This document shows, in pieces, positions 1-62,687 of a stretch of 64,000 nt of DNA; position 1 is the first letter of the stretch; the number at the start of each line of letters is the position of its first letter. The notes under the pieces are model-generated. The model did not search any database, was not told the DNA's origin, and was given only the letters and a program-made list of their open reading frames with translations. Source of the DNA: Eremomyces bilateralis CBS 781.70 (Eukaryota). The translations under genes were made by a program, and so were the position numbers. The DNA is taken from the NCBI GenBank assembly GCA_010015585.1, contig ML975149.1; one strand, 5' to 3'.

Positions 1-2112
1 CGATGCCGACGCCAGCGTCTTGCCGTCCGGCGCGAAGACTACGACGCCGACCGTGTCCGAATGGCCCTCGAGCGTCTGTATTACCGCATTCCATTTCTCT
101 TCGACCCTTGGAAAATTCCGTATCCATCTAGGTATACAGTTTACGAACTGCTTTCTTATTATACTTATTGTCGGTGCGAATACGAGGGCACTACAGTACG
201 TCTGAAGAGGAGCCTGCTCGATAGCTGGCCGATTATAGAGGACGAACCGCTTCGCATCATGGATAAAGCTTAAAATGCCAGGGCAATTACTTAACTAGCC
301 GAATTGTTAGCGAAAGCATTGAACGTGCTAAAGGTATACTAACGGAAGTAAATAGCTCTAAAGACGCGATAGCATGAGCTCCTTTCGACACCTCCCCCAT
401 CCATCCAAGAGCCTCGAGCCAGTGAAGAAGGTGCTCCTGTAAGAATTGATGTACTTGACCATTATCGCAAAGTCGAGCTCCACTTTTCTGGAGGTGCTGG
501 ATCCAGTAAAGACATGCGTACTGGACTTCAGGAGGAAGACTTTGTTCAACTCGGCTTCTCTCGACATTAGCTATAAGCATGCCGGGGGCATCTACGCAAC
601 AGATATCTTGCTTGAGTGATGACGACATAAGCTGGATACAGCTGTTGGTTAACACTTGGTGGGCTTCCTTCTCGTCTACCCAGAAATTTGGATCTCGGCA
701 TCTCTTTTTGTCGAGAAGAAAGTCGCGAAACGAAGGGTGATGCAGGCGAAGCGGATATATGTTGACCTTGGGGACATCTAGAATTGCATAAAGATCCTTG
801 AGCACCTCATCGATCTTTTGCTTGGTATTAAGCAGCCTGTGAAGCGAGCTGGCAGAGAGCTGGGAGAAGAGAACAACGATGCTTCCAAGAATGTGCCTTT
901 GCATGCCATACGATGCTTCCTTCTCCTTTGCTGAGTAACCTGACCGGATAGATTTCTTTAGGACGGTAGTATAGAGCTTATTAAGGTGTACTTCTGGATG
1001 CCCTTCTGAATGCTCTTCTGAATGCTCTTCTGGGTGCTCCTCTGGTGCAGGAATAGAGGTACTGCCTTCTAGCAAAGTTTGCACTCTTTCGTCTGCGAGA
1101 TAACCTTCTTGAATGAACCGACAAGCGGTTGCGGCCCAAATGAACAATCCCCCTGCAATCTGGATCAGGCTTTTAATAATCTCTTCGCCTGGCCAGGAGT
1201 CATCCAGAGAGTGCTCCTGTCTAATAAGTTTAAGATTATACTCGAAGAAAACAGAGATGTCGTGATCTACGATTAAGGGTGATATACTGTGAAGTACAAA
1301 ATCCTGGAGATTCGCATTTAGTAGCTGACTGAATTCATATCGGATTGGAATCTCAGGTCGGCTCGTCAGTAAGACTCGTAGTCGAACCGTCTTTAACAAT
1401 CGAGCTTCAGCCAAGAGCTGTATGATAACCTTGATGTTTTTGTCACCGTCGCACTCATCAAGCGCATCAACGACAAGTATGTACGAGGACTGGCCACCGT
1501 TTTCACCTAGCTTTAATAGTGGACGTAGGATAAGCTGCTGCCACTGGTCACGGAGTGACTGACTCGCAATGTCGCGGCGCTTTATGATGGCATCGCAAAT
1601 GTGCTGTTGGAGAGAGGGTATGTTGTTCGCCAGCTGCCACGCAATGCTCGTGATGAACTTGCCTGCATGGCTGACATCTCCACCGCCGCGCGAGAAGAAG
1701 AAGCTGGCTCCGAGATGCTTCTCATCAAAGCGCCTGCGGGCGACAGTGCGCGCAATTGTCGACTTGCCCGTGCCGGCCAAGCCGTTCAACCAGAAAATAG
1801 AACGCCCATCTTGCCCATCAGCCCAGTCGTATATCTTTTGGAGGAGGTCGACGCGGGTATCGGGAAGGCAGGCCGGGTCGTGTTGTCGCTGGAATGAATT
1901 GAACGGCGCGTCCTCTGCAGTAGGGAGGGAGTTGAGCACATCGTTCAAGTCTAGATTTCAAATCAGCTTTCCTGCTGCTTTAAGGCTATAGCCAGCTAAG
2001 CACACTCACTTTCGCTGCTCCCAAAGCTCACAGATCCATAGTTAGTGCCAGCGAAAGCCAGTGAATTCTGGTTGGCGGACACACTACTAATGAGTTGAGT
2101 GTTACCTGACAT
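1..2112 (-). CDS. NACHT-WD40 NLR (HET-E/NWD-like STAND protein) with a short N-terminal motif; 3' end runs off the window. Exons 2112-2010, 1950-344, 294-<1
   Basis: Walker A GLAGTGKST, FFFSRG, Walker B LVVDALDEC, LLTSRP and HHPSFRDFL in ORF 287-1948. Intron 2009-1951 (GTGAGT..GCTGAT..TAG) joins exon 1 MSGNTQLISSVSANQNSLAFAGTNYGSVSFGSSE in frame. Intron 343-295 (GTTAGT..GCTAAC..TAG) leads into LSNCPGILSFIHDAKRFVLYN..APLQTYCSALVFAP.. and the first WD40 repeat TLEGHSDTVGVVVFAPDGKTLASAS. Confidence 0.93.
986..1045 (-). repeat. Five imperfect 12-bp in-frame tandem repeats inside the NLR (PEEH-PEEH-SEEH-SEGH-PEVH)
   Basis: + strand units gtgtacttctgg / atgcccttctga / atgctcttctga / atgctcttctgg / gtgctcctctgg. 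Confidence 0.9.
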
Positions 2113-2762
2113 GAGTTTGGAGTAGCGACGCTAAGTTTTGCTAGGTGCCGGTTGTTGCTCTCTTCTGGCACATGTTGCCGTGTGTGGGCATGCGAACACC
2201 TGGGAGTGAGTTCATGTCTGTATCCAGATGAGTTTCATCCTCAACCAGCGAATGCATTTGCAAGGCTCGCTAATCAAAACTCCTGCCTTGCCGCTATCCA
2301 CTACTGGAGAGCAGCTATCGCCTGCAAAGTAATTAGCGCAGACATCAATACTACGGGTGTCTTGGCACAAGGATGAAAGCGCTGAGGGAAAATAACCTGC
2401 AAAACGCCCTCTAGGAACCTGAGAATTCCCAGGACGTTCTACCAGCATCTTTAGTTAGTGAGGTGAAATTACTTGCTTGATTATTCTAAGATGTAGAAGA
2501 CATAGGATTCCTTTTATAGTAGGAATTATTGTGTTAACCCTTTGTCCTGTGTTCTCTTCCTTAACACTTCCAGTCATCCCTTTTTCCAACATATTCCCGT
2601 AGTATGTACGCTCATTAAGGATTAAGATCAATCAACACTTTCAATTCTTGGTAATCAAGTGCTCTCCTGCTGAAGTCGCATCTCCAGATCACCTGATCAA
2701 AGGAACAGCTATTCTCTATCAGATATCGATCAAGCCACAGAGGACTGAATATCATTATTTCC

Positions 2763-4052
2763 TACACTGACAGGACATAAGTCTGGTCAGGGTCGTCAAA
2801 TCACGCGAAAATCCCCCATCACCACCCACACATTGAGATACGCTCAAAAGCGTAGAGAGAGCGATCAGTATACTATTTTTTGATTTCCTAATTGAGACGC
2901 GTCTAGTATTTCGTATGCCAGCCCTTTGCTTTGACCACCGCTCGTAAACGCTTCGGAATTGAGTCAATCAGTGCCCAGATGGTCTCCTAAGGGATCACCC
3001 ACCACGCCTGATTTAACGCCGTGTTCATGGCCTCCCGTGCGTCCTCTGAGGCACCTATCATCTTCAATTCAGGGTGGAGCTCTAGGACCTTGGTTTTTAA
3101 TAGGTGCCACATGTGTTCGATGGGGTTAAGGTCTGGGGAATGGGTTGGCCAATCGATAACCCAAATACCATGCGTCTCCAGCCATTCTTGGGTGATTTTG
3201 GCCGTATGGATCCTTGCATTACCCTGGATAACAGTATCCCCAGGTACATACATAGGGAGGAGCCCCTCCTCTAACGTAGCGATGTAGGATTTCGCGGAAT
3301 AGCCCTGTCTTAGAGGGTCTTCGTCGCGGTCCATGATCACCAGCTCCGACCTCCCTTCACGCGAGATTGAGCCCCAAATCGTCTGCGAAATCGCCTTTCC
3401 AGGGGTCTTAGGCTCGATCATCTTTGGCTCGTATGCTTCGTGATATAGGCGCCATATCCAAACCTGTTTTCCGCCGGCACATTTCTCATAAGAGTACTCG
3501 TCTGTAGAGTGGGTCCTTGAGAAGTCGAAATCTACGAACTCACAGGCGAATTGGAGCCGGTCTTTGACGTGGTAAGGCCTGAGATGGGGCCTCTCCTTCG
3601 CTCGCCACTTCGTAAGGTGATATTTCTTAAGCGTTCGGTAGACAGTCTTCTTTGAGATCCGGAGGTATTCGACGCCTGCGAGGAGCTCTGAGTACTCCAT
3701 CTTTGGGAATCTGCGTGCAATTTTGACGATATGCCGTTCGTCTGACCGTGATAATATAGGGGGGCGGCCCTTACGAGGTCTAGATTTAAGGAGGTGGTCT
3801 TGATCCCATCTTTTCTGCGTCCTGTACACCGTAAGTTGCGTAACGTTGAACTCCTCCGCCACTTCGCTCTTCGTTTTCCCACAAGCTAGGTTCCCTAAGA
3901 TCACAGCTCTTTGAACATCGGTTAATTCGTCGTTTCTGCGTCGATTGGCACTAATTTCATTACCGAAAGACCTCATTTTAATGGTGATGTTGATGGTTAA
4001 AATGGTGGTATTCAGCTGAGATAAAAGTCTTGATGTGTGACTGACCAGACTT
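2763..4052 (-). mobile_element. Tc1/mariner-superfamily DNA transposon (DD34E, impala-like), defective
   Basis: Left end TA-CACTGACAGGACATAAGTCTGGTCAG (2763-2790). Its inner 12 bp recur inverted at 4041-4052 (CTGACCAGACTT), but the outer part of that TIR is missing. A transposase lies between the two ends. Confidence 0.88.
2903..3976 (-). pseudogene. Tc1-type transposase pseudogene
   Basis: HTH region with RKGRPP, then STDE, QGNA (canonical QDNA, so the second catalytic D is G) and WPTHSPDLNPIE with 34-residue spacing. Premature TAG at 2989-2987; the frame continues ETIWALIDSIPKRLRAVVKAKGWHTKY* to 2903. Confidence 0.9.
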
Positions 4053-4238
4053 GTGGCTTAGTACTTTACTCCACTCAAGCGCCACGCTCCTTGCCTCCTT
4101 TATTATGTAATACGCGTTGTTTCATCTCATTTACAGTACATAATGATCGATCTCTTATGACCAAATCACCCTGAAATCCAACTATTCAGTAGAATCAGTC
4201 GGATAAATCTAACTAATAGAATGAGGCTCCCTACCCCG

Positions 4239-5560
4239 CTACACAACGTTTGTAGCAACGTCCTTATTGCCATTTCCTATAAATATAGGGCTCCTTAGTG
4301 CAGCTGCTTTCCGCAGGTTGTAAATCTTTTCTACCCTTGAGGGCGGGCCCTGCCTACCCGGATCTCTTTGTCGTAGTTTGCATGCGACTTCTCTTACTTG
4401 ATCTAGACAAAGGGTCTCTGCGCTCTCTTTTGGGAGTGCTCGTTGTCCGTCGATTGCTGGCTCAGCATTCACTTCCTCGTCCATATCTATGTCCATATCT
4501 ATGTCCATATGGTTTGAGTTTTCCGAGGCAATGTCACTTTGTGCCACGGGTATCCCTAGCTGGTTCGGGCCGGGCAGGACATTATATTGTGTTTGTATAC
4601 AATCGCAGGTTTCACCAGTCTGCCTATCCAGACTCCTGCCACAGTTTTCTGAGCTGCGCCATCTGCACTTCGCTCGTCCACAGTCGCCCCCGAACCAAAA
4701 GGGTCTCTGCCTGTGGAACGCCTGTTTGTTCCTTAAGCATACATCACCAGCGTTCCAGCCTAGCGACTGGTCCTGTCTCTCTGTATACCGACACGCGCAT
4801 CCGTTCTCTCGAGCCACGTGGTAGTCTCTCCGGCCGGGGTTTGATCCCGCCTGCTTTCAGATTCACCGAGGGTCAGAGCCCATTGAAGGGATGAGGTCCT
4901 TGGAGCCAGCAGTGGCTACCACGCACTACGCCCCGCGACTACTGTAAACAGTAGCCGTTTCGCGTTGCCTATAGAGGTCTCCCTCTGATGGGCCGACCGT
5001 GTCTTGCAGGATAAGGCAGTACTCATGCGTTTCACGCCGGGCAACGCAAGCAGCCTTATCCCATTAACCAAGCTCGTGTCCTCCATCATCTTAAGTTGGC
5101 CCGTGATTCTCCTATTGTATAGATCCAAGCGACGGGTCTGTGTCTCCATTAAGCCTCCCACCAGGAGCATACCTGTGTTTCTCCTCTATCGACTGGCCTG
5201 TAACTCCAGTTCCGTAAACTGTCGTGCTTGTCGCGCCCGGTAAGCTCGTGTCGTTATGGTATTAACAGGTTCCGATAGAGGGGCCTTAACAAGCGCTCCC
5301 GTTGCGAAGAGGCCCTCCGGCCTTAACAGAGTTCACCTAGATTTATACAAGTTAGCCTTAACAAGTTCTTTAGAATTAGGATTGTTCCAAACCCTCGCTA
5401 CACGCAACTCGTTGCTCACGCGTAACCCCAGAGTAGGCGAGCCTGAGGGTGTCCTGTTAGGGGCCTAGGACGCATCCTCATCCACCTGATAATAAGTCAG
5501 GCTTCCGGATCCAGCTGCGAGCTAAATAGACCCCTATCGGATGGTTTTCATCTCCCATTT
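4239..5560 (-). pseudogene. Degenerate coding remnant of unknown family
   Basis: One minus frame (~5550-4916) reads as protein with sparse TAG/TGA stops (..LRVARVWNNPNSKELVKANLYKSR*TLLRPEGLF..ASR*RRNTGMLLVGGLMETQ..). ORF 4239-4817 follows downstream and contains a 12-bp MDID repeat. No family recognised. Confidence 0.3.
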
Positions 5561-5877
5561 TTATCCCTCAAGAGGCTTCCCTTGATGAAAGGACACCGTG
5601 TTTAAGCAGAGGCAGTAAACACGGTCGTGCTGGTGTTGGTGGTATGGCGATACCCCGCTCAACGCTTGCGACCTGCACGCGTAATGCGTGCGTCTCTCTC
5701 ATCGCCACTACACTTAGCCATCGATCGAGAACTCTTCCCCATTAATGTTTCCACCCGCGGCGACATGGACGCGTACAGTTGGACTTCGCGGGCAGTTCTG
5801 CCTATTAAAACAAGGATAGAATTGTATGTTCCTACTTTTTATACCTGATTTCTCCCCCCAATGTTCCTAAGTGCAAG

Positions 5878-6059
5878 TTACTGGCACACTCCTGAGTAGC
5901 AGTTCCCAGGACCACAATGATCAGAAGTACTCCTGCAATAGCCGTAATTACTGCAGCAATCCCCGTTACAACACAGGTCTTGTTGCCTGCAAAGTTCGGA
6001 CCACAGGAGCCATCTAGGCTGGGTCCTCCGTCGTCCGTATGACATGCACCGCCATCTAG
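5878..6059 (-). pseudogene. Hevein-type chitin-binding (CBM18) domain remnant, frameshifted
   Basis: Minus strand reads LDGGACHTDDGGPSLDGSCGPNFAGNKTCVVT, then after a frameshift GDCCSNYGYCRSTSDHCGPGNCYSGVCQ*. This is the CBM18 C-G..C..CC-S-x-x-G-Y-C..C..C..G-x-C pattern. Not in the ORF track. Confidence 0.8.
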
Positions 6060-6739
6060 GAGACGCTTAATGTAGATTCCGAAAATATGAGAAATATGTA
6101 CTAGCTACAAAACGTCGACCTTCGGATCGTTATAGCCAGGAAGCTCGACGTACAAGAACATCAATGATATTGTGCGGTGGTAATAAGCCAAGTTGAAAAG
6201 GCGTTTCAAGGGGAGAACAACCAATTATAGAGATCGATGTAAGCCAAAAAGAATTTAAGCCACGTAAAAATAAGTGAAGTTGTTCATTTTATCACAGCCT
6301 TGCACTCCTTTGAAAACACCTTACCCGTCTTTCGCCATGCCAAAAGGAAAATAATATGAATCACTCAAACAACCGTAAGATGATAGGCCTTGTATACTTG
6401 CAATGCTCCTTCAGTGCTCTGGACCATAGCGAAGAACATTGTTAAGAAGAGTAAAGCGCAACCCAGAACGTGCACCATTGAACGCCATCCTGCCGATCCG
6501 CCCACCTGGAAGGCTGGAAGGATCGACAGGATCGTCGGTTGCAGTTCGCCAAGGCTACGTGGCGTTGCTTGGCGTTTACCTCTCAGATCAATCACCTCGC
6601 TCTTCCACCAACGACCACCGTAGTTCTTTTTCCATCCAACAATCACCTTGTTCCTTTTCCATGGAACAATCAACTTGAGCACTTTGTGCCGTCATCACCT
6701 ATACCAACAACTCGCTCTACTGATATGTGACCTTCAAAC

Positions 6740-7606
6740 ATGCTGCACACTCGCATTTGGCAGCGTGCGGCCCATGGACATCATGCTTCCCGTCATGTCT
6801 ATGCACTCCTACGCCAATCAAGTCCTATCGATCGATTCAAATCCTATCCAGGTCTATTCCGCACTACAACCCGTACATCTTTATTTCCCTATAGTTTTAA
6901 TATTTACTAATAGCTCTATAGGTTTGCTGCATGACGATAGTAACATTGCTCCGTCTCAGTCCTCCGAGTCCCCTCCTCAGTCCGCTCAGCCCGCTCAATC
7001 CTCTCCGTCCCCCCCGTCCTCTCCGTCCTCTCAGCCCTCCTCTCAATTCTCACCTGCGCAGAGCGCTACTACGGACAAGATCAGCGCGCTCCAGATAGAC
7101 ATGGCTACTACATCAACACGATTGGATCACCTCAAAGAGTCTTTTGGGATCCAAGTTGTTAGCCTCAAGTCCGCAATCAGTGCTCTCGATACCAAGTTCG
7201 ATACGAAGTTCAATATTCTCGATACCAAGCTTAGTGCCCTCACGACCGAGTTCAATGCCTTCAAGGCCGAGTTCAATGCCTTCAAGGCCGAGTTCAATGC
7301 CTTCAAGGTCGACGTCAAGGCCGAGTTCAATGCCTTCAAGGTCGACGTCAAGGCCGACATCAATACCATCTCGTATAGCCTCAATACCAAAATTGATTCA
7401 AAGTTTGCAGAATTGCAGCAACAACAAATGCGATTGGTATGGCGGGTGGTCTTTACTGTAAGTAATATCCCTCCAATTATATCGATATACCTGTTAATAG
7501 TATATAGCTTTTAAGCAGTGTGGTTGTGGCACTTGGCGGTGCGACCACCTTATTTATGCGAGACCGTTTAGCTCCGTTGGAGACTCGTCCTGTTGCGGAG
7601 AAATAA
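6740..7606 (+). CDS. Predicted mitochondrion-targeted coiled-coil protein with a C-terminal transmembrane anchor (CCDC90/MCUR1/DUF1640-like architecture). Exons 6740-6872, 6922-7457, 7508-7606
   Basis: Introns 6873-6921 (GTACAT..TACTAAT..TAG) and 7458-7507 (GTAAGT..TAG) keep one frame. Product: Arg-rich, acid-poor N-terminus MLHTRIWQRAAHGHHASRHVYALLRQSSPIDRFKSYPGLFRTTTRLLH, a Ser/Pro/Gln linker, a heptad coiled coil, then hydrophobic LVWRVVFTLLSSVVVALGGATTLFM and RDRLAPLETRPVAEK*. Confidence 0.75.
7246..7353 (+). repeat. Perfect 21-bp units (ccgagttcaatgccttcaagg) x4 with 12-bp inserts (tcgacgtcaagg) x2, encoding EFNAFKA and EFNAFKVDVKA
   Basis: 21-bp units at 7246, 7267, 7288 and 7321; 12-bp inserts at 7309 and 7342. 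Confidence 0.95.
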
Positions 7607-7719
7607 TATATAATCGCAATAGGTATGACTACGCATTAATGAGAAATGGAATAAGATTTAATTAGCACTAAAACAAGTTTATTATACCCCCCCTATACGA
7701 CTAGTTAGGTTTAGAGCTA

Positions 7720-8890
7720 GAATAGAATAAATCACCTGTTGACTTGGCTGTCTTCAACATCAAGCCATTGTCTTATTTCCAACCTGTGTGGATTTTGATG
7801 CCTCAGACATCTGGACCTTGTTGATTCTGGATCTGATGGACCGTGGACCAGGATGGCTATTAAGGCCGGGTCGGCTGATGGATAACTATTATTATTTGGT
7901 CCATTTAACGCCTGATACGGTCCTATCTAGTCCATGCAGGCTGTATCGCTACTATGGAGGACAAAAAACCCTGTAGGGAAACCCTTTTAGAAAACCACGC
8001 TAGCGCTACGGCGGCTTGCCCGCTAATTATAGCCCTATTTTTATCCTCAATTGTTGTTCACTGCTGGGGACCACTGCTTCCGCTCTCGCGGATATCTTGC
8101 GAACCGCCTGCATTACGCAGGCCTACCCCTTCTTCTCCCTCTCCCCCTATTCATCCCTAATCCCTTGGAACGGCGCGAACCCTGAACGGTCTTCCTCTTC
8201 TATCTTGCTGGCGAACTGAAATTGTAGGAGTAGACCGCGTGCGACTATCCAGCGGGCCGCCGCTATTGCACTCGCCGGAGTGGAGAGGATCTCAAGCAGG
8301 CCCTGTGTTTGGATCCGTGCGAATAGCTCTAGCCGAGCCTGTTCGCGTATTGAGCAATGGATCAGGACGTGACGTACTGTTTGCGCAGACCACCCGCAGG
8401 CGCAACTCGGGCGTATCTCCGGAACTCCAACCCCTGCAAGCCATGTGTTGAGACCGATCACCTCTGAGCGGAGGGGGAAGAGGGCAGTAGCGACGTGTTT
8501 CGGGGCTCCGTCATATAGTTTTAGGCGGTCCTCGCGCCAGTTGCCCTTCCAGATGCTTGCCGTTTGGTTCTGAGCCTTGCGTTGCCATTCCTCCTGCCAG
8601 TTGCGATCCGCTCACTTCCCGATGGCGGTTTTTATGCGGAAGGGTTGTAGTGGGGGACTCCTACCTCCCCCACGGCGGTGTTGTCGGGCTTCTTGCCTGA
8701 CCATTTGGATGATCTCCTCAGCACGCTGGCGCCCCATCTCCGCCACGCTGTGTGGACGTATGCGTATCGCACGCGGCCTGCGTCTTCCTCTTACTCCTTG
8801 CACACCCCTATTCTGCAGCGTCCCCCAGACCCTTTCCAGTGTTTCCGATGTCTTAGCCACGGCTGGGTGGCTGGCTGACTTGGCGTAGTA
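7720..8890 (-). mobile_element. Non-LTR (LINE, Tad1-like) retrotransposon 3' remnant
   Basis: Minus strand ..IGK*ADRNWQEEWQRK..WREDRLKLYDGAPKHVATALF, then a frameshift into LRSEVIGLNTWL..CACGWSAQTVRHVLIHC (ORF2 C-terminal CCHC finger)..AARWIVARGLLLQF. A possible TATTC-repeat tail lies near 7720-7730. Boundaries are approximate. Confidence 0.8.
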
Positions 8891-9344
8891 GCCTAGGGCG
8901 CTTGCTTGGATGTAAATACATGATCAAAAGATCCCGAGGTCCAGCGCCAGTGCGAAGAAGTACAGTGACTAGCGAAATTGGCTTCCGCCCTGCGCGGCCC
9001 AGAAATTCTCACTGCACCGCCACCTCGCACTCTTGGCGTAATCTTTACGCCATGGTTCTTAGTTATCAATATAGTAGTTACTGTATTCATTCGGCCCCTA
9101 AATGCTTATCACATTGATGCCTTACCATGGCAATCACGTGAACCCAAATGCCCTTCGTACCGTCGAGCCATTCAGCGCAGCGAGTTCTCCTGCGAGGCTG
9201 GGTTCAACCTTCGCCAGCCTTATCCCCATTTCCAAGTGTACCACCACATCCCCGTCATGGTTCATTCACTCTTTATCAAGAAACGATGTTTGAGTCTACC
9301 GGGAGACTTAAACTCTGGAACACTCCCTACTCTAAGTAAGAGCC

Positions 9345-12034
9345 ATGCGTCTACTAAAGCGCAGCGGCAATGGGGAGCTCAGTATGACCGACGACCTGGT
9401 TGAGGACGATATCCGTCGGAAATACGCCATCCTCTCGCATACATGGATACACGGCGAGGAGGTTACATTCGAGGAATTTCAGAAAGGTACGGGAACGCAC
9501 AAAGCTGGATACAAGAAGATCGAGTTCTGTGGAGAGCAGGCCGCTCGCGATGGGTTAGAGTATTTCTGGGTGGACACTTGCTGTATCGATAAGTCCAACA
9601 ACACTGAGCTGTCGAAGGCCATCAACTCCATGTTTCGATGGTACCGCGATGCGACGCGATGCTATGTCTATCTGTCGGATGTATCAGAGCCGGTCCCTAA
9701 TACAAACAACTCGCATTCGCCACCTTGGGAGACGGACTTTCGGCGAAGTCGATGGTTTAGGAGAGGCTGGACGCTTCAAGAGCTGATCGCTCCTAAGGTA
9801 GTCGAGTTTTTCTCCAAAGACCGAGTGTGGCTGGGAAACAAGAGATCGCTCGAACAGCAGATTCGCAAAATCACCGGGATTCCTGCGGCGGCCCTTCAAG
9901 GAGGTGCACTCTGTCAATTTAGCGTAAAAGAAAAACTGTTATGGGCTCAAGGTCGCGAGACAACGGGGGCGGAAGACCAAGCATACTCATTGCTGGGGAT
10001 TTTCGGGGTGAGCATGGCAATGATTTACGGGGAAGGAATAGACGAAGCGTTCCGGCGGCTCCATTTGGAAATTGAGAGAATATCCAAAGGCATATCATCC
10101 TCCTACCTCTTCTCACATCACAACGACGAGGAGTAAGGGCCGGCTAACTGAAACAGGCAACCAATTCGAAGACTTCTCGGTCAGCTTTAGTCTCGCGGAT
10201 GTTTCCGAAACTGAGCAATTCGTCGCAAGACAGACAGAATTGCTAGAAATGCACAAGACCCTTCAAGGCGATGGTAGTCGTCGCATCGCTGTCCTTCACG
10301 GTCTGGGAGGAATCGGTAAAACTCAGCTCACGGTCGCCTATGCTAAGCGGTATCGAGACAATTACTCGGCGGTGCTCTGGCTCAACGCCAAAGACGAAGA
10401 CTGTCTCAAGCAGAGCTTTGGCAATGTAGCTCGGAGAATACTCCAAGAACATCCGTCTGCTCCACGTCTCGGTGGTGTGGATTTGAAAGGGATCTTAGAC
10501 GAAGTAGTAGAAGCGGTCAAAGGGTGGCTAAGTGTCTCCAAGAACACCAGATGGCTCGTCATCTATGACAACTACGACAATCCTAAATTACGAGACGATT
10601 CGAACCCGACAGCATTAGATATCAAACGATTCCTCCCTGAATCATACCAAGGGTCGATCATTATTACCACGAGGTCGTCGCAGGTTACAGTCGGCCGTCG
10701 TATACCAGTCGGAAAATTGGAGGATATGCAGGACAGCATCGAGATTCTATCGAATGCGGCAAGACGAAACGGACTACGCGATGGTAAGAGATTCCATAAG
10801 TAAAAACATGTTTCTAACATGACCGACAGATCCGGACGCCATCGCACTTGTCAAAGAGTTGGACGGACTTCCTCTTGCACTAGCAACAGCCGGATCATAC
10901 TTGGATCAAGTGGCAGTCAGCTTGGCCGAGTATCTTCAGCTGTACAAAGCATCATGGCTGAAGCTACAGAAAAAGAGTCCGGGACTAAGCTCGTATGAAG
11001 ACCGAAAGCTCTATTCGACCTGGAACATTTCTCTAGGCCATGTCCGACGGCAGAACATGCTCTCGGCTCAGCTTCTTCAACTGTGGGCGTATTTCGATAA
11101 TCAAGATCTTTGGTTCGAGCTTCTTCAGCACAACGACTTAGAAGATCCCGAGTGGATTCGTGCGGTCACTGAGGACCGAATCAACTTCAACGATGCTGTT
11201 CGAGTGTTATGTGACCATGGACTGGTGGAAGCGGATTCATTGTCGCACGAGTTGGAGTCTCGTGGATACAGCATGCACAGCTGCGTACACTCCTGGACTC
11301 GTCATATGTTAAATCAAGAGTGGAACTGTAACCTAGCGAAGCTAGCGCTGAAGTGTGTCGGATTACATATTCCTGGAACTTCGAGTGATCGGTGGTGGAT
11401 TACGCAGCGACGGCTTCTAGGGCATGCGGCCAGGTGTTCCTTAATGGAGACAGAGGCATACGGCGAGATGGAATGGGCGTTACATAACCTGGGCCTGCTC
11501 TACGGCGACCAAGGGAAACTGAAGGAGGCAGAAGAGATGTACATGCGAGCGCTACAAGGAACGGAGGAGGCGCTTGGACCGAAGCACACATCCACTCTTA
11601 TTACTGTGGGCAACTATGGTGAGCTGTATACGAAGCAAAACAGGCTAGTCGATGCCGATAAGCTGATCCAACGGGCTCTGCGAGGATTGGAGAAACTACT
11701 TGGCCCTGATCATTTGATTACACTGGGGGCAGTCAATGGCGCTGGTCTTTTGTATCACAAACAAGGTCGGCTTTCTCATGCAGAGAGGACGTATCAGCGA
11801 GCATTACAAGGATATGAGAAGGCAGTCGGGAGTGAACAAGCCAAGACTTATGTCCCTGCGCTTGACGTAGTGGATAACCTCGGTAATCTATATGTGGAGA
11901 TGGGAGAGGAGGAGAAGGCACTGGAGATGTATTTGAATGCTCTTTCAGGATTTGAAGTTGTGCAAGGCCGGTCGAGCAAGCGATGGCAGGATATTAGTTC
12001 CTCTTTGGCAGCATTGCATGGGGATGTGGATTGA
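9345..12034 (+). CDS. HET-NB-ARC-TPR NLR. Exons 9345-10089, 10157-10783, 10830-12034
   Basis: HET motifs YAILSHTW, WVDTCCIDK, AINSMFRWY, WFRRGWTLQEL. P-loop HGLGGIGKTQL, WLVIYDNYD, IIITTRS, GLPLAL, MHSCVH. About four TPR units (HNLGLLYGDQGKLKEAEEMYMRAL..). Intron 2 10784-10829 is canonical; intron 1 is modelled as GC-AG 10090-10156. Confidence 0.92.
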
Positions 12035-12076
12035 AATGGCCTATTCCTAACGCTAATAGCAGCTTCTATGGGCACG

Positions 12077-12239
12077 TGTTACGAGAAGGGGATATCACGT
12101 GGTTGTGTTGTAGTTGACCGTCACCACACCCCGTGTGACAGTAGCTGTGACAGGAATCTTGATGAGGTTCCATCTCTACGCTAGGTTTGATTAGGCTTAG
12201 GCTCTCAGCCTATGCTAACCATGGGCCATGCCCATAACA
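12077..12239 (-). mobile_element. Short solo LTR related to the one at 12542, in the opposite orientation
   Basis: TGTTA..TAACA termini. The reverse complement begins TGTTATGGG..TGGTTAGCATAGGCTGAGAGCCTAAGCCTAAT, matching the start of 12542-12731. No matching target-site duplication (gcacg vs cctcg). Orientation is relative only. Confidence 0.7.
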
Positions 12240-12960
12240 CCTCGCGGCGTACCTGCTCTCTCTTCTTTTAGGTGTAAGAACCACTTCGTCTCCTTCCTGC
12301 ATAAGAGCTCTCTACACTATCAGGACGGTTGATACTCGATTAACTTGTCGGACCTCCTCAGATTCTTGATCTTCTAATGCAACGCTAGAGATCCAAGAGT
12401 CGGACACATAGGTCTAGAGAAAGGCACGACATGTATCCTAGGCCAAGGCTACCTCCTCTAGTGAAGAGCTGTAAAGGTATATAACTAGATATCGTCCGGC
12501 TTGCGGTGTAGGACGTCGCGAACGTATCTAAAGGATGTGAGTGTTATGGGTTGAAACCCTTGGTTGGCTAAGGCTGAGAGCCCAAGCCTGATTAGGTTAA
12601 GGGTTGATTCAGAGTCCAACCCTCTTCGATGTAAACAAGAAAGCTTCCCCTTCTTGTTCTCTTCTTTAACTTGATCTAGAATATATTTGGCTACGTGTAT
12701 GTTGTGTGCATCCAGCTACCGTGCCGTAACAGTGAGTGTAGGTCATATGCATGATAAGTCTAGGTGTTCCGTACTCCTTGAAGAACGACGTGGCGTAGCC
12801 GCGCTTATAGATAGTTGTCCGACAGTAGGACCGTATCGTCGAGGGGCTTGCTCTGGAAGCCAGCTAGAAGTTCCTTTGCATCTTATTCTCCGGCTTCGCC
12901 CTTTCTAATAGCGCGTTGTGGCACCATAGTCAAAGAAGTTTCTTAGAATAGTCGTAGAGA
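12240..12960 (-). pseudogene. Degenerate coding remnant interrupted by the solo LTR
   Basis: Removing the LTR and one TSD copy gives a continuous minus frame with scattered TAG stops: ..TTIYKRGYATSFFKEYGTPRLIMHMTYTH|IL*IRSRRPTPQAGRYLVIYLYSSSLEEVALA*DTCRAFL*TYVSDSWISSVALEDQESEEV.. Family not recognised. Confidence 0.3.
12542..12731 (+). mobile_element. 190-bp solo LTR with a 5-bp target-site duplication
   Basis: TGTTATG...CGTAACA termini, flanked on both sides by GTGAG (12537-12541 and 12732-12736). Confidence 0.9.
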
Positions 12961-14047
12961 CCTTTGGCTGCTTGGAGCGTTGATAGCGTCGACTACTTCT
13001 GGAACTGAAGGAGAGCACTGTAGAACTGCGAACAGGGCTCCTGACTGAGACCGAGACTGGAAATCTAGGGAGAAAGGGCATCTTTATGGTCCTTACCAGA
13101 GTGTATTTTCGACGGGCCCTCGTCTTTCAGTGGTATTGACCCTATGTTTTCGACCTCGTTTATACCGCTGGGAGAGTTATGGGGAACTCCCAATGCTGTA
13201 TGTTTTTGTTTTTGCTTTGTTTTAAAGCTGGCTATCAGGTATCTATTTCGCTGCAAGCGGCACACACCAAGTTGGAGGATATTCTATTAGACTTGGTGAG
13301 GGAGGGCCGGAGGGGAGATGGCAAGGACATGGTCCATGCCGTACATATATCAAGCCGACCGGCATATGCAAGTTAGGTCCTTTGATACAACAATCGGAGA
13401 CTGAAATCTCCCCCAAGCCACGGGTCTCTTAATTCCTATCGGCTTGCCTGGCCTCGAGATGGGCCTTATATAAGATGGAATTCGATATTTCTCTAGAAAT
13501 GCTGGGCTAGTCTCAATCGGTTCAGAGCTCACGGATAGAACTGGACCGCGAATATGACAAGAGGAAACTACGATGAAAACACTCCATTCAAATTCCTGGG
13601 CTTCATAATCCGGCACGACTCGATCACAGGCCACGATTCATGTGTTTGATTCTGGAAAACGGGCCGTCGAGCGCTGGATTGACGCTGGAGAACTCTACAT
13701 TGGCCCAAACGAGTTTCTGGACTCTTCTCCCCATGGTGGTCAACGCGATGGCGCCTAGCAGTTTTGGAGGCCGCCACGTCCATAGCGTAGTCACCATGTT
13801 TGCTGGCAATTCTGCGTACTTCGACTGTGTCTTTGGACAACTCCTGACCCCCTGTACACCTTGTCCGTGCTTGTCCTTTGTGGAGGGACTATCAGGGTAG
13901 TAAGCAGGCTTATCATCCAACTGAATAAACCGACAACACCAAGAAAAAGGACAGCCGAGTCTCGCCGACTGGCCAAGTCGGAAAAATAGTAGATTCCTGT
14001 TCAATAAAACCCTTTCGGATGCTTGGATTTCGTCCCTCGATCTGCCT

Positions 14048-14542
14048 CTAATGCGCACTCGCAAGTCCGTCCCCTACTACGTTCGCATCAAGTTCGCCCA
14101 CCAGCCCTTCGATCTCGTCACCAAACTCCACCTTCTGCCCCCTATCATCCGGACACATCAAGTCCAGCTTGCTATCCGGCCCCTTATCCATAATCAAGAG
14201 CTTCGCGAACTCCACCCGCCCGCTCGCGTCGCTCCAGTGTCCCAAATTATCCTCCTGCGGCCGCTTGGGGTCCAGCATCAACAGCATCCCCAGCGTGCGC
14301 CCCACAAAGTCCCAGATGAAGTAGACCTTGTTCTTGTACGCGGCAGGCGTCATGAAGGTTTGGAATTTGTTCTCGGCCATGGCGGGGTGGTCGATGAGGA
14401 GGCGGTAGAGGCGTTTGAGGTAGTTGACTTTGGAGGCCCATTGTTCGTTGGCGTCGGTGGGCACTTCGGCATTGAGCATGGCGTCGGTGTATGCTTGACG
14501 GGTGGCCACGTTGGGGTCGGGGAAGCGGAATCCACTAGGCAT
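14048..14542 (-). CDS. Hypothetical 164-aa protein, intronless
   Basis: GCC-ATG start, strong GC3 bias and globular composition (..KNKVYFIWDFVGRTLGML..). No family recognised. Confidence 0.7.
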   Translation of the reverse strand: MPSGFRFPDPNVATRQAYTDAMLNAEVPTDANEQWASKVNYLKRLYRLLIDHPAMAENKFQTFMTPAAYKNKVYFIWDFVGRTLGMLLMLDPKRPQEDNLGHWSDASGRVEFAKLLIMDKGPDSKLDLMCPDDRGQKVEFGDEIEGLVGELDANVVGDGLASAH

Positions 14543-15859
14543 GGCGAATGTATAGAGCCGGGCTACCTAATTGGAGTAAACAAGGAAATTGGAGAGGGTC
14601 CTATAGTTTCCCTGGAGATTAAATGCGAATTCGAGTTGATACATGTGCGGCTGAAGCTTGAAGAGCTGAGACTAAAGCTGATAGATAGGGGGAAGAGACG
14701 GTGACGTAATTACAATGTATTGAATGTGTTCCTTCCGGAACGGTACCAAAAAAACATCGATATTCACCTGAAGACTTCAAGGGGAACAAAACCGCGGTCC
14801 ATAACCACGACTATACCCGCAATACGATGAACCTCCTTAGTTGCCAACTGATATCTTTGCCTTGGACGTTCTGTCTTTGGTGCAGTCGAGATTGATACGC
14901 ATGCTGGCCAGAAGGGCTCCTCCAAGGTTTCGAACACTCTGAACCATAGCTGTCATCAGACGGCAGATAAAAGGTGAACGAAATAGATCTCATAACGAAT
15001 GACTCTAGAGATGACTGTACTGTAAGCAAGGCCTGGCAATGTGCCAGCACGGAATTGGGAGGCCTTCTGGGAGGGAATATGTGAAACCCGCATAAGAAGA
15101 TAGGGTTCTCGTCGAGCTATGCGGAAATAGATATATAGGACCTGCATGGAGGATTTGACATCCTTATTTATTTGTACCGGCAAGTGGTTGTTAAAAGACA
15201 ACTGCTTTACTGTACCCGTCGAACGTTTGATTTAGCATTTGTTATTGATGTTATAACTTATACTAACTATAGCTTCAACTTGTTGTCAGGGTCCATCCTC
15301 GTCAATATGATACATATAATGGATCGCCGAATCTCCCAAATTTCTTCGCGTTTTCACAATGATCTATAAGTCAACCGACTGCAATTTGTCGCCAGTATCC
15401 GTCTCTTCGACAGACTGGTTTTATGAATACCTTCGCAACAGCTCGTTTCCCAATGGACAGCCGATATGATGATATGCAATGTGGAAGCCTTTAATCCCGT
15501 ACGAAGGACAATCTATCACACTGGCGGTTGAATGGAGATATAATCGAATTCATTTTATCCTATTTTCTCACTGGCGTATCTTTACTATTTTCCCCGTTAC
15601 CGAGTCAATGATTTCTTTCGTACTTCCATGTCAGGGCAGGCTAGCACTATGAGTCTTCCCATCCGGTAGCGATACGGCCGATGCGCCGTAGCCCATACAC
15701 GACCGACACACACCGCACCGGCCTGCAGCTCATGAACAGGGGAGAAACGGCCACGGCTCATCGTCACGTTCTGTTCGTGGTGTGCTTTGCCATCGAAGGC
15801 CACGGGGGGTGAACCGCGGTTCAGGGGAAACGCACCACTATGAGTCGAGGGATGTCATC

Positions 15860-16740
15860 TTCACTCTGTCATAGGACGGGCATGACTATGGCAAGGACGT
15901 GGCGGGTCCGATGGGCTAGCTAGATGCTCTGGATCTGCCTGCCTTCGTCCATTTTCCTGTTTCGCTCGTAGAGCACTATGCATAAGATTCCTTGCTGGGA
16001 GTGTGGACTCGTCGTCTCCTATCGTCTTCTCTTGGGATAGGATCAAACGGCCCTGGATGAGGTAGCGGTTCAGAATGCTGTAAAGCGGCATCTAAGCGAG
16101 GATAGAAGCGAAGATATGTACCTTGTTGCTTGATTTCAATGGAAGCTTTTGAACTCAAACTGGGACAATCAGCAAGACTCTAAGCGGTAGGGCCGAAAAG
16201 CTCAGTGCAGGCAAATCATCCAATTCTATCAGGGAGACCCCTTCGTCCGTCTACCACACCATCGACAGTGGTGGTTCTATTAAGGCAGATGATCAGCTGC
16301 TACAGTGGAAACAAGACGATACATTCGGCATCCCGTCCTGGCATCAGTATCGGCATTGTGCAGAAGCTAGCGAAACCGTCTACAGGTATCGATTCGAGAC
16401 CAACCGATGCTGAAATTCTTCGGGTTTTATAGAAACGACGACTGAAACGACAGACGAAGATTATCAATTTCCTATCCGGTGACTGCCCGTCGCAAGAGTG
16501 AATCAATTCCCGGCAATCGTTCTTTCTGCCGCCGAGGGCTTGTCCGTAGGGCTCTTGGGATGTGGAACGAGATCAGACAAATTGCTGCCCAGGGGATGCC
16601 CAGATGTGGAAATATCCTGGGACATGGTCATCCAGTCGACCAGTCGAGTTGCTTTGCGACTGTGCCCCATCTCTAGATGATCGTGGGCAACGATTCCCAG
16701 AGGGTTGGGCTCCACCGTCGTGCTTGATCTTCTATACATG
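15860..16740 (-). pseudogene. Possible highly decayed SRPK-like (CMGC) kinase remnant
   Basis: Colinear fragments in several frames (MYRRSS..HDHLEMGHSRKATRLVD..GHPLGSNLSDLV; IHSCDGQSPDRK; VDGRRV..FGP..LADC) loosely resemble fungal SRPK-like kinase motifs. Resemblance by eye only. Confidence 0.2.
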
Positions 16741-17758
16741 TATATGAAACTTCATATAGAGCTATTTGTAAAGTGCTCTATCCTCTAGGGCCGGGGTGCG
16801 CCTTGTCCTTGGATTATTGGGCGATTTTCTTCGACGGTTTACCTACTACAATTCCTATTGAAGGAAAGGGCGGAACCCCTTGACCGAGTGTTTTAATCCT
16901 CAAGTTTATGTAATATGTTCACTATACGAACAACTCCTATAATTCCGGTGACAGGAATGGAGCTATAAGGATTCCTTAGTGACCCTGTAATTGAGCGCTC
17001 GTGCCGCCTCGTGGGTGATGATCCAGTTTCACCGCGCCTGTTGCGGAGAGCAATATATATCCCTGTCGACTACCCCATGATCTACGTGCATTCAATGAAT
17101 ACCGCCCTCCCCAGCCAAGCCCGCCACCAAATCCTGTATGAACCTATTGAACCTTACTGGACTCAAGCTCAACTACTCCGCTATCGTGAACTCTACCCGA
17201 AGTGGGGTAAGCCCCTAGATGTCCTCGTGTTTAAATGTGTTAAAGCATATATAGGTCGCTAGCGTGATCCTTTAAGGGTGTGAATTGTCTGGTCGTTCGG
17301 ATCGCGACTCCGGTCTGTACCATTTTTCTTCCCCAATTGTTCTTGGACCTCAACGACATGGATTTACCCCGCATCTTGTATAAGGGACCTCCGAATATCC
17401 GAAGCGAAGGCGCCCTGGTAGACCTCAGGGTTGCCCAAGCGCCGGGCGGCCAAGTGATTCAACGTTTCCCAGAACAATTTGGCACCGCGGCGCCCCGCAG
17501 GATGGCAATCATTGCCGTTTGGCGCGGCGAGGCCGGGGGGGTGGCTCTAACTGCACATGTACATGAGATCGATTGACCTCTCGCGTGCTTGATATGATTT
17601 CCCTGCCCTCGGCAACTCGTACTCATCCAGAGCTTTAAAGTCCTCGAGACACCGGATTCCGGTCTAGGCAGTATGGAGCAGGTTCTCGTCGTTCGAGACA
17701 CGGTTTGACTTCGAAAACTCTCGCTGTGACTTGCGCTCATAGTCTCCGAACGTCCAAC

Positions 17759-19748
17759 ATGGGGAAGCCAGATGATATGAACATTGACGATACCAAGGCG
17801 GCGGAGGCCGTGGTTGTGGAGGATGTTAACAAGCTCCACCTCACGGTCAGCCAAGAGGCTGCCACGCCAGGAGAGGGAGAGGCGATGATGACCAAGGCTA
17901 AGTGGTTGGCATGTATAGCTCTCGGCTTAGGATACACGACGCAATTCCAACAAGGAGCGTGTACCGGAGCTATCTTGAAAAGCATTGACGAAGAGCTGGG
18001 TAAGAGAGATAATAGGTATAAGAAAGAATGAAGCTGATGACGAAAAGGACCGACAAACTACTACAATTGGATGCTCGGTGCAAATACCATTGCAACTGCC
18101 GTGACATTGCCACTGGCAGGAGGCATATCAGATATCATCGGTCGACGTTGGTTCTTGATCTACGGTGGTGTGCTAGGCATCATCTCTGGAATTGTGGCGG
18201 TATCGGCCCAAAGCATTCCTCAGGTCATCGCTAGCAGCGTGCTTGCCGGTATGGGTGGAGGCGCACAACAGCTTGCGTGAGTTATCACGGATCTCGGCCG
18301 TTGTGAAATTACGAAATTGCTTACACCCGTTGTAGCCTCGCTGCAACCGGAGAACTCGTCCCCAACAAGCACCGAGGGAAGGTCCAAGCCTGTCTCGATC
18401 TTGCCATCCTCCCATGGACAATCTTCGGAACTCTCACTGGTAGGTATCCTGTGTAATTGTCAGTCTGGGGTGCGAATGCTGACCATTCGTCTAGGTGGAG
18501 CCATGGTCACGTACCACAGTCTCACGTTCCGGATCAACTTCATTATCGGCATCATCCTCAACACCATCTCTTGCCTCATGGCTTTTTTCTGCTACTTCCC
18601 CCCTACCAGGACCCACAAGCTCATTGAGCGTGGAACGACGAAGTGGAAGGCTCTCGCCTCTCTTGATTGGATCGGTGTGGGTTTCCTCACTGTCGGACTC
18701 GTGCTGCTTCTGGCCGGCGTGGCTCTGGGAGGCGCAACATACCCCTGGGATCATCCTGGATGGATCGTTCCTACGGTCCTTGGGTTCGTCTCACTCGTGT
18801 CTCTTGGTTTTTGGGAGTGGAAAGGGACCAAGGAGCCATTCATGGCCAGAGAACTCTTCGCCGGCAAACTCCGCACGTTCGTGCTGTTCCTCTGCGTCGA
18901 TTTCGTCGCTGGAATGGCCTTGTATGCCAGTGCGGCGTTCTGGGCGCAGCTCTGCAGAGGGGTCTGGCAGGTGACCCCGATCAAGGTTGGCGTCTTGAGC
19001 ATTCCCGGAGGATTCGGCGGTGCAAGTAAGTCCTTCTCGTGATTGAAAGGCCGGGACATATCGGATCTGTAACTGACTTGGAATAGTTGGGGGCTTTGCT
19101 GCCGGGATGGTGATCGGTCGCTACAAATACACTTCCACCAAACACTGTCTTATCTTCGGCACCATCCTCAAGATCATTGCAGATGTCATGCTCATGCACC
19201 TGAAGCCAGGAACCATCCCTCTGGGACTCGGGACTGGTTTCATCTCGATGGTCTCCACCGGCTGGACTAGCGTGTCCCTTATCGTCTGCGTGCAACTCAC
19301 CTGCGAAGATGAGGACATCGGTCTTGCTACGCTGATGCTAGGATCCGTCCGCGCAGTTGGTGGTTCCGTCGCGGTCACCATCTACTCCAGCCTGTTGACC
19401 AACACAATGAAGACCGACGCAGGTCCGAGGGTCGGGGAGGTGGTGTTGAAGATGGGCCTGCCCATATCTTCGTTACGACCGCTCGTCCTATTGCTCATCA
19501 ACGAAGACACGGAGCTCGCAGGTCACCTGCCCGGTATGACGCCGGAAATTTTGCAGGCCGCGCGGGATGCGCTCGCCTGGTCGTGGACACTCGCCTTTAA
19601 GCGCGTCTACACTGCCGCCACCGCGTTCGCTTGCCTCGCTTGCGTCGCTGCGATATTCACGAAGGACGTGTCACACGCGATGACGGACCATGTAGCGGTT
19701 CGACTTGAGAATGAGAAAGAGAAGGAAAAGGAGATTACAACAGCTTAA
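17759..19748 (+). CDS. MFS efflux transporter, TRI12-like (14-TM type), multi-exon
   Basis: Hydrophobic segments, MFS motif A GGISDIIGRRW, WKALASLDWIG, DIGLATLMLGSVRAVGGSVAVTIY, MTDHVAVRLE. GT-AG introns near 18000, 18277, 18440 and 19026. Confidence 0.88.
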
Positions 19749-20325
19749 GAAGGTAACCCGCGCATGATACTGATGAAAGGCGTATCTCTGTCCGTCAATA
19801 GGGGTATTAGTGCAATGAAATGGATTCTCTTGATTGACTTGCAAATTTCGATATATCCGAACGAATGTTAATGCATCGTCAAGTAAACAGATATCAACAG
19901 TGAAGCAGTACAAATGAAATCCAAGTCCGACAAGTAATCAATGACTATTATGTAGACGCCGAGTGGTGTTGGACTTGAAATGAGTGCATGTCGCGATACT
20001 AAAAGAAGCCGAGGGTCTCAACTCTCAACTCTCTCCCGTTCCACACCAGACGTTGGTTCCTTCCTTGCGTTCGTTGTGTGACGCCAAGTTGCACAGCCAC
20101 ACATCGACTTCGTCATCAGTCGACATCTCCCCCCAGACCAGCCATCATCATCACCACCGCCGAAACACCACAGTGAAAGGTACGCAGCCTTTTTGCCTTC
20201 TCTCTTTTCACAACGGCTGGAGCCTCCAACCTACAAAGCCATAACCTGATCTACGTGATCTCCTCCTCAACACCTCGCATTTCCGTCTGGTCCGAACCCA
20301 TCAGACACGCCCCCTCCCACCCAAC

Positions 20326-61278: not shown

Positions 61279-62687
61279 TCACAACCCCTTTCCGCCATTG
61301 ACGACTTTCTCCATCGGCCCGTTCCCATGCGTAGTATGACCATTCAACCCCGACTCTTTCTGCAGCTGCCATTCCTCCCACTGATCCAGCAGCTCGATCT
61401 GATCCTCCGTGTCGCCGTCCCGGTTCGAATTTGGCGAGAGCAACGTGATGCCGATGCCGTATATCGAGTGGGCCAACAGCACGAACGTCAGGCCGATGAT
61501 CCGCCCCGCGTTCATCCGCTCGCCCAAGATCAGCTGCGTCAGGATCGTCTGCACGATGACCCGCACCGTCCCCGTGGCCGTGAACCGCGTCTCCCCCGTC
61601 CACTGATCCCATTTCCACACCCGCGACGTGGCCGTCCCGAACCGCGTCAGCCCCGCGATCGCCCCGAGGAGGGCGAACTGCGCCATTTTGCCCACCGCGG
61701 GGTACGCCCCGCTCACCTCGAGCACGCGGCCGCTAAGCAAAATGTCCACCACGGTCGGGATGTAGATCCATTGGCGGGATATCAGCATCAATATGATTGC
61801 CGCGAGGAAGCTCCATGCGCTAATCCCCCACGAGGCGTGCCACTGCACCCGCTGCGCTTTCGCCGGGGAGTGATCCGGCTCGCGAGAGAGGCCTAACCAG
61901 AACTGCGGTGGAACCGCGATGGAGACGGCCACAGCAGCCGAGGAGAGGACGCCGAAGATGATGCCGATGGCGAGGATGGCGTGGGCGCCGGCGTCGGCGG
62001 CGACGGAGATGGTGAAGCCGATGATGGCGATGAACGAGGCTACGCCGGAGAGGAGAGCGGGGTAGAAAGGCGAGGGTTCGGGGACGAGTCGGGGGGACGG
62101 ACGGCTCTGGGAGAAGCGGCGGGGGCGGCCGGAGAGCATTAGGGGGAGGGAGAGAGAGAAGAAGATGGCGAAGGGGAGGAGGAGGCCGTGGGCGATGGGG
62201 TAGACGACGAGATCGAGGTATTTGAGGGTAAGGATCCGGAAGATAAGGGTGGAGAGCGAGAGGGCGGATGGAGTGAGGAGGGGAAGTAGTGACTGCGCGA
62301 GGTGATGGTAAGTTTCGCATTCAGAAGTGTTGCCAATGTTGCCAGCCCGGTCTAGCTTCCCATCTTGACATGTTGACGAGACGATGAAAAAGGGGACGAG
62401 AACAACAAATGCCTTACCGATATTCTGAATCCTTTGATTCCTGTGGAGGCTATCCCCGTACATGTCAAGAGAATGAACTCAATGCCGGTCAACATGAACA
62501 GCAATAGGAACGGCGCGTCCAGTGCGTTGAGCGCCGCCTTCATCAAAATCATCGTCGCGATGGACCATGTTGAATCGAACACGATCACACCCGCACTCCC
62601 AGTGTTCGCACGTAGCGTCGACGTGAGCAACGCGACGACGCCGGCATCGATTGTGGGCATATTCGATATCGCGGTCTCCCGTCCCAT
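61279..62687 (-). CDS. Multi-pass membrane protein, probably DMT/nucleotide-sugar transporter-like, with one intron
   Basis: WSIATMILMKAALNALDAPFLLLF, TLKYLDLVVYPIAHGLLLPF, TGTVRVIVQTIL..GRIIGLTFVL; donor GTAAGG near 62418. Confidence 0.6.

Follow-up and report, generated by a model that had tools for sequence, protein, structure and literature searches.

A putative HRAM2-type amyloid signaling motif encoded by the first exon of a NACHT-WD40 receptor gene of Eremomyces bilateralis

What stands ahead of the NACHT domain of a fungal NOD-like receptor (NLR) in which no effector domain is encoded there? The question is raised by a minus-strand gene at the left end of a 64,000-nucleotide (nt) stretch of contig ML975149.1 (GenBank assembly GCA_010015585.1) from Eremomyces bilateralis CBS 781.70; the whole of this stretch is referred to here as the window. 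An earlier note on this DNA had proposed that a 103-nt exon, spliced in frame to the NACHT-coding exon, supplies a candidate amyloid signaling motif in place of an effector domain. We found that the exon and its splice hold, that a short peptide precedes the NACHT where an effector domain would otherwise stand, and that residues 4 to 24 of this peptide have the makeup of a HET-s-related amyloid motif (HRAM) of the HRAM2 subtype, in the single copy (r0) seen on the receptor side. We consider it probable that the gene encodes an NWD2-like NLR with an HRAM2 r0 whose stacked copies would template a separately encoded HeLo or HeLo-like effector.

The product of exon 1 is MSGNTQLISSVSANQNSLAFAGTNYGSVSFGSSE plus one base of a split codon (feature positions are collected in Table 1). 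Exon 2 opens at 1950 with the frame kept, the split codon being AAC (N), followed by LNDVL. Upstream of the Walker A loop GLAGTGKS, the exon 2 frame lacks any ATG, so that an earlier coding exon is required. An in-frame stop lies at 2131-2133, 18 nt upstream of the ATG at 2112, and the leader has no other ATG. The public protein P0002, of 588 amino acids (aa) and annotated by its source as hypothetical and from Eremomyces bilateralis CBS 781.70, is identical to the spliced translation throughout, intron 1 junction included, and was the sole protein recovered by a 44-residue read-through query from a word index of 5.8 billion proteins. Exon 1, its reading frame, and its in-frame splice to exon 2 are confirmed. 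The exon is not hidden, as the earlier note had it, given that it was already part of the public gene model.

Only one public sequencing run (X1) was found for the stretch; it is stored as contigs, and its RNA origin is only a guess. An X1 contig of 161 nt spans 2157..2010 with 0 mismatches, its match breaking off exactly where exon 1 ends and leaving 13 letters over. A second contig ends exactly at 1950, with 4 mismatches, and is perhaps derived from a paralog. The X1 contigs list no joint over intron 1 (2009..1951), where they give no cover, and this counts as no evidence. The intron 1 junction is supported by the public model and by the contig ends, not directly by reads.

The composition described for the 34-residue peptide was borne out by count: it holds 9 S, 4 N, 4 G, and 2 Q and no proline, and its sole charged residue is the final one (E34). 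In the parts of PMC4518210 (Daskalov 2015) drawn on here, the HRAM spans 21 aa: Gly is invariant at position 19, positions 5, 8, 10, 16, and 18 are hydrophobic, with T tolerated at 10, and R or K is favored at position 15 as a preference rather than a rule. Position 3 separates HRAM1 (N), HRAM2 (Q), and HRAM3 (H), while Q at 18 marks HRAM4 and Q at 16 marks HRAM5 (PMC4518210). In residues 4 to 24, G22 falls at position 19, the core positions 5, 8, 10, 16, and 18 are taken by I8, V11, A13, A19, and A21, and Q6 stands at position 3 with no Q at 16 (A19) or 18 (A21), which is the signature of HRAM2. The ungapped alignment to a HET-s repeat in the earlier note, with its first residue and its Gly 16 apart, turned out to be this same register (Q6 at position 3, G22 at position 19). 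Copies on the NLR side have fewer charged residues (D/E/K) and more S and H according to the same paper, and most HRAMs begin at positions 5 to 9 of NLR N-termini in the consulted part of PMC9815663. Along these lines, the motif is present here in a single copy from residue 4, residues 1 to 33 are uncharged, and 9 of the 34 residues are S. On the level of sequence, residues 4 to 24 are shown to be an HRAM family member that bears the HRAM2 signature as a single r0 copy. The earlier suggestion of a divergent or new motif variant did not survive this comparison: the peptide fits HRAM2 of Daskalov 2015 and resembles the r0 motifs printed there, so that the design was already known, and this case adds one more instance of a subtype published in 2015 rather than a novel type of motif.

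Three r0 motifs printed in the supplementary table of PMC4518210, namely, RQQDISGVSAQNHSQVFAGHA (row Coclu2_33136), NSQSISGLSATVNSTLLAGQF (row Cadsp1_474010), and ITQNISGVSAESGGKVFAGYV (row Pengl1_430165), each agree with residues 4 to 24 at 10 of 21 positions in an ungapped alignment of identical register, as counted by eye. The r0 motifs printed there come from NLR genes adjoining HeLo-related effectors. The effectors paired with these three carry Q at repeat position 3, and in Table 1 of the paper, Cadophora has two HRAM2 proteins and none of the remaining classes, from which we take the three systems to be HRAM2. Our own placement in this subtype draws on the signature residues and on these identities counted by eye. 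Like the HRAM2 r0 of NLRs in that source, the Eremomyces motif consists of one 21-residue repeat right at the N-terminus, uncharged and rich in S, and it has in common with them Q at 3, I at 5, V/L at 8, A/T at 10, F at 17, A/V at 18, and G at 19. With the NWD2/HET-S system of Podospora anserina (HRAM1), it shares the r0-NACHT-WD40 order, the 21-residue register, and the hydrophobic core. Position 3 is Q here and N in NWD2, and the subfamily therefore differs from the HRAM1 of NWD2/HET-S.

Two relatives extend the comparison. The hypothetical NLR P0056 of Aspergillus aurantiobrunneus (KAL4911900.1), a protein with a NACHT and beta-propeller repeats, has a NACHT 46% identical to that of the Eremomyces protein and the N-terminus MATQQISGISATDGARIFAGTN. 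Its segment TQQISGISATDGARIFAGTN aligns to TQLISSVSANQNSLAFAGTN of our peptide without gaps, with 11 of 20 residues identical and a score of 52. The P0056 motif begins at residue 3 and the matching part of the Eremomyces motif at residue 5; P0056 differs in having R at 15 and I at 16, and the linker behind its motif is unrelated. With 11/20 identity against 46% for the NACHT, the motif is conserved across fungal classes no less than the NACHT. Searching with a profile built from both N-termini recovered P0154, a paralog from the same species that is 78% identical overall. Its motif, STQLISGVSANQNSQVVAGTI, keeps every HRAM core position and is identical to a published r0 at 12 of 21 residues. 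The P0154 model is without 34 residues, including the Walker B stretch, and has DIASQSLR three times in tandem, which marks either an artifact of the gene model or a decaying copy.

Could the peptide be a plain disordered leader, rich in S, N, and G, with an amyloid likeness that is purely compositional? The HRAM pattern, in our transcription of the published definition (PMC4518210), is not rare in bulk, a six-frame reading of the window giving 7 matches where 4.25 are expected, so that place matters as much as pattern. A leader of this kind would also fit with the silence of Pfam (see below) and of the ESM Atlas, which for residues 1 to 40 returned no usable match by features and only structure rows with TM scores of ≤0.40. 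However, only 33 of 20000 shuffles of the peptide's own composition produced the pattern, and the score of 52 to P0056 was reached by none of 2000 peptide shuffles (maximum 48) and, set-wide, by none of 300 shuffles compared with any of 41 short N-termini. The pattern occurred 3 times in 107417 residues from the NACHT-plus-repeat parts of stored homologs, and among 42 short N-termini (20 to 80 aa), it was found only in this protein, P0154, and P0056. The identities to the three printed r0 in one register also speak against such a leader, as does the location at the very N-terminus in a NACHT clade rich in these motifs: a full HMMER search with the exon 2 product gave 21367 matches at an E value of ≤0.001, and among the best 150, many of those whose N-termini are short show, by eye, strings resembling HRAM, HRAM4, or PP motifs. 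We regard a purely compositional likeness as extremely unlikely.

The remainder of the gene has the architecture of a receptor. The product of exon 2 matched the Pfam profiles NPHP3_N (E = 2e-31) and NACHT (E = 5.1e-9), and both Walker A (GLAGTGKS) and Walker B (LVVDALDE) are intact. Farther downstream, an X1 contig joint at 294/344 skips 49 nt, with CT..AC ends on the plus strand and 60 letters on its shorter side, and once this intron 2 is spliced, the frame is open to the left edge of the window. The exon 3 product is identical to residues 542 to 624 of P0154 at 73 of 98 residues (74%), and P0154 continues into WD40 repeats (PF00400). The joint and the paralog together show that the gene extends beyond 287 into WD40 repeats that leave the window. 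The public model P0002, which retains intron 2 and ends at the stop at 287, is too short, and the analysis flags it as a gene model shortened by a retained intron. The window covers no more than the beginning of the WD40 repeats, and with the 74% identity to a WD40-bearing paralog, the order is N-terminal peptide, NACHT, and WD40, that is, an NWD2-like NACHT-WD40 NLR. Two more X1 joints, 1304/1371 and 1477/1761, were taken as paralog artifacts and set aside; their shorter sides span 25 and 24 letters, and their ends are noncanonical. Between the NACHT and the winged-helix part, at about 1000 to 1060 on the minus strand, there is a His/Glu-rich insert, PEEHPEEHSEEHSEGHPEVH, which is 10 residues shorter in P0154.

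The mechanism that we propose for the r0, its stacking upon receptor oligomerization and the templating of a HeLo-type effector, is inferred by analogy with the NWD2/HET-S paradigm as set out in the parts of PMC4518210 and PMC9815663 used here. A ligand would bind the WD40 repeats, and the receptor would then oligomerize through its NACHT domains. Several unfolded r0 peptides would in this way be gathered and might stack in register into a beta-arch or beta-solenoid-like nucleus. Such a nucleus would template the C-terminal domain, built of two repeats (r1, r2), of a separate HeLo or HeLo-like pore-forming protein, and this protein would then kill the cell. The partner gene would be expected to the left of the window, at the P0154 locus, or elsewhere in the genome.

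Several observations weigh against this proposal, some of them in the motif and others in its surroundings. Position 15 is L18, at variance with the preference for R or K and with the HRAM2 r0 systems of PMC4518210; P0154 has Q there and P0056 has R, and some r0 motifs printed in that paper carry Q, T, or S. The first 40 residues of the two paralogs are 80% identical against 78% for the whole protein and are no better conserved than the rest. The peptide matches no Pfam profile at an E value of ≤10, the HET-s profile PF11558 (HET-s_218-289) included. As for this last point, the same scan of 28 of the 42 short N-termini, chosen by eye as polar or motif-like, was silent on 27 of them, and none of the 28 matched the HET-s or the sigma profile; in addition, only 38 of 155 HRAM proteins match PF11558 in the data quoted from PMC4518210. 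The missing PF11558 match therefore says little, and Pfam-based annotation once again misses such short motifs.

The search for a partner adds further points on the same side. In the 64-kb window, no second or doubled HRAM was found: local alignment of the peptide to all six frames scored at best 35 outside the motif itself, below the 37.4 that the best matches of shuffled peptides averaged. No Pfam match to HeLo, HeLo-like, SesA, SesB, PNP_UDP, or patatin was obtained in 132 open reading frame (ORF) stretches of ≥60 aa at 2113-20000 or in 130 stretches of ≥100 aa beyond, exon 3 included. Two word-index searches of the 5.8 billion proteins gave NLRs only (1 of 11 and 3 of 173 candidates), by a method that depends on 5-residue words in common, and r0 seldom shares such words with r1/r2. 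As the earlier note had anticipated, then, the effector is not in the window by alignment, by doubled-pattern scan, or by Pfam, and no matching effector exists within 62 kb upstream. This separates the locus from the HRAM2 r0 systems of PMC4518210, given that no effector adjoins the gene on its visible flank, and from het-S, which adjoins nwd2. In the portion of PMC4518210 at hand, 98 of 155 HRAM effector genes adjoin an NLR gene, while that of PMC9815663 also reports HRAM pairs that are not adjacent and a surplus of motifs on the NLR side. Two candidates were rejected. The only doubled-pattern pair in the window (61891-62043, minus strand) is a hydrophobic, membrane-like stretch, and a look-alike at 7403-7456 (plus strand; score of 29) is an out-of-frame reading of a coiled-coil ORF at 6624-7511.

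The empty flank bears on another explanation, in which the r0 is a relic or an orphan: HRAM2 by descent, its effector lost or never an attendant of this copy, and the peptide idle or serving only to hold the oligomer. Besides the lack of a partner in the 62 kb upstream and in the word-index searches, this idea draws on a transposase ORF 0.9 kb upstream of the NLR start, on the Walker B stretch absent from the P0154 model, a hint of decay in a small family, and on two points from the consulted part of PMC9815663: NLR-side HRAMs outnumber effector-side ones (motif NLR13 with 131 NLRs against 16 neighbors and 43 effectors), and a scaffold role is discussed for some motif instances. Yet, the gene itself has intact Walker A and Walker B motifs and a frame open across three exons, and every core position of the motif is kept in both paralogs. 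Moreover, only one flank of the gene is visible in the window, and nonadjacent pairs are reported for HRAMs. A relic is, in our judgment, unlikely, although it deserves to be kept in mind, and templating of a HeLo-type effector by an HRAM2 r0 stays the interpretation that we favor.

The peptide had also been described as ending in a PP-like GxNxG. The PP core is NxGxQxGxN in the part of PMC9815663 drawn on; the peptide is without GxQxG and gave no Ses_B match, whereas the PP-type N-terminus of P0023, a positive control and the only match among the 28, hit Ses_B at an E value of 1.6e-4, under the curated cutoff. A PP motif was therefore rejected. What the peptide has in common with the PP motif (Ses_B; HELLP-type systems) is to be a short N-terminal amyloid signaling motif on NACHT NLRs of this clade, as in P0023. 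More broadly, one may ask whether it belongs to another family, PP or sigma, or to a new family of amyloid motifs, given that AGTNYG can be read as GxNxG and that the tail YGSVSFG falls outside the 21-residue HRAM unit. When the peptide was scored against HRAM, PP, and sigma, as the earlier note had suggested, only the HRAM pattern was found, and neither Ses_B nor NACHT_sigma matched at an E value of ≤10. All the HRAM core positions are occupied as expected, and the HRAM2 r0 align with the peptide without gaps. Membership in a different family has, in our view, very little chance of being correct.

The aromatic, Gly-rich tail behind the motif, YGSVSFG here, is HGSVNFG in P0154. It allows a more elaborate picture, in which both paralogs would use the r0 in trans toward a distant effector that is neither HeLo nor HeLo-like, or as an oligomer clamp with no effector at all, the conserved tail adding an extra arch. 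The 21-residue r0 in the published data drawn on (PMC4518210) are without such an arch, and we think this picture quite unlikely.

Eremomyces bilateralis is absent from the examined part of the r0 supplementary table of PMC4518210, and its name, its locus-tag prefix, and two motif strings had 0 occurrences in 11 of the 13 supplementary files of PMC9815663. No publication joining this species with amyloid, NLR, or HET-s was found, which is not proof of absence. The gene and its paralog would add one NLR and one paralogous copy to the HRAM2 branch of fungal amyloid signaling, in a little-studied Dothideomycete lineage.

Table 1. Positions of the receptor gene parts, the putative motif, and the domains of a second NLR in the window
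Feature	Position	Strand	Details
5' untranslated leader	2157..2113	minus	at least 45 nt; X1 contig reaches 2157
Coding exon 1	2112..2010	minus	103 nt = 34 codons + 1 base; start ATG at 2112
Putative HRAM2-type r0 motif	2103..2041	minus	residues 4-24, NTQLISSVSANQNSLAFAGTN
Intron 1	2009..1951	minus	59 nt; GTGAGT donor, CTGAT branch-like site, TAG acceptor
Exon 2	1950..344	minus	linker + NACHT (NPHP3_N) NTPase module; Walker A GLAGTGKS at 1760-1783
Intron 2	343..295	minus	49 nt; GTTAGT...CTAAC...TAG
Exon 3, cut by window edge	294..1	minus	linker + start of first WD40 repeat
HET domain	9336-10133	plus	second NLR, Pfam
NB-ARC/AAA_16	10042-10800	plus	second NLR, Pfam
TPR_12/TPR_10 repeats	10823-12031	plus	second NLR, Pfam

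Upstream of the receptor gene, the window contains a Tc1/mariner-type transposase ORF, a second NLR (HET, NB-ARC, and TPR), transporters, and housekeeping genes. The transposase ORF (2990-4057, minus strand) looks intact and matches DDE_3 (E = 2.1e-14) and HTH_Tnp_Tc3_2 (E = 9.2e-14); no inverted repeats of ≥18 nt were found around it in 2113-4600. The second NLR, of another type (9336-12031, plus strand), is made up of three consecutive open stretches in differing frames, which points to introns or frameshifts. At 6624-7511 (plus strand), a 296-aa stretch combines an S/P-rich part, heptad-like repeats (AEFNAFK and others), and a hydrophobic C-terminal tail, and it has no confident Pfam family. 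Close to the receptor gene, a 426-nt X1 contig matches 2194-2457 with 4 mismatches and passes into unrelated sequence at about 2457-2461, a divergence that suggests a repeated or paralogous element at 2194-2457.

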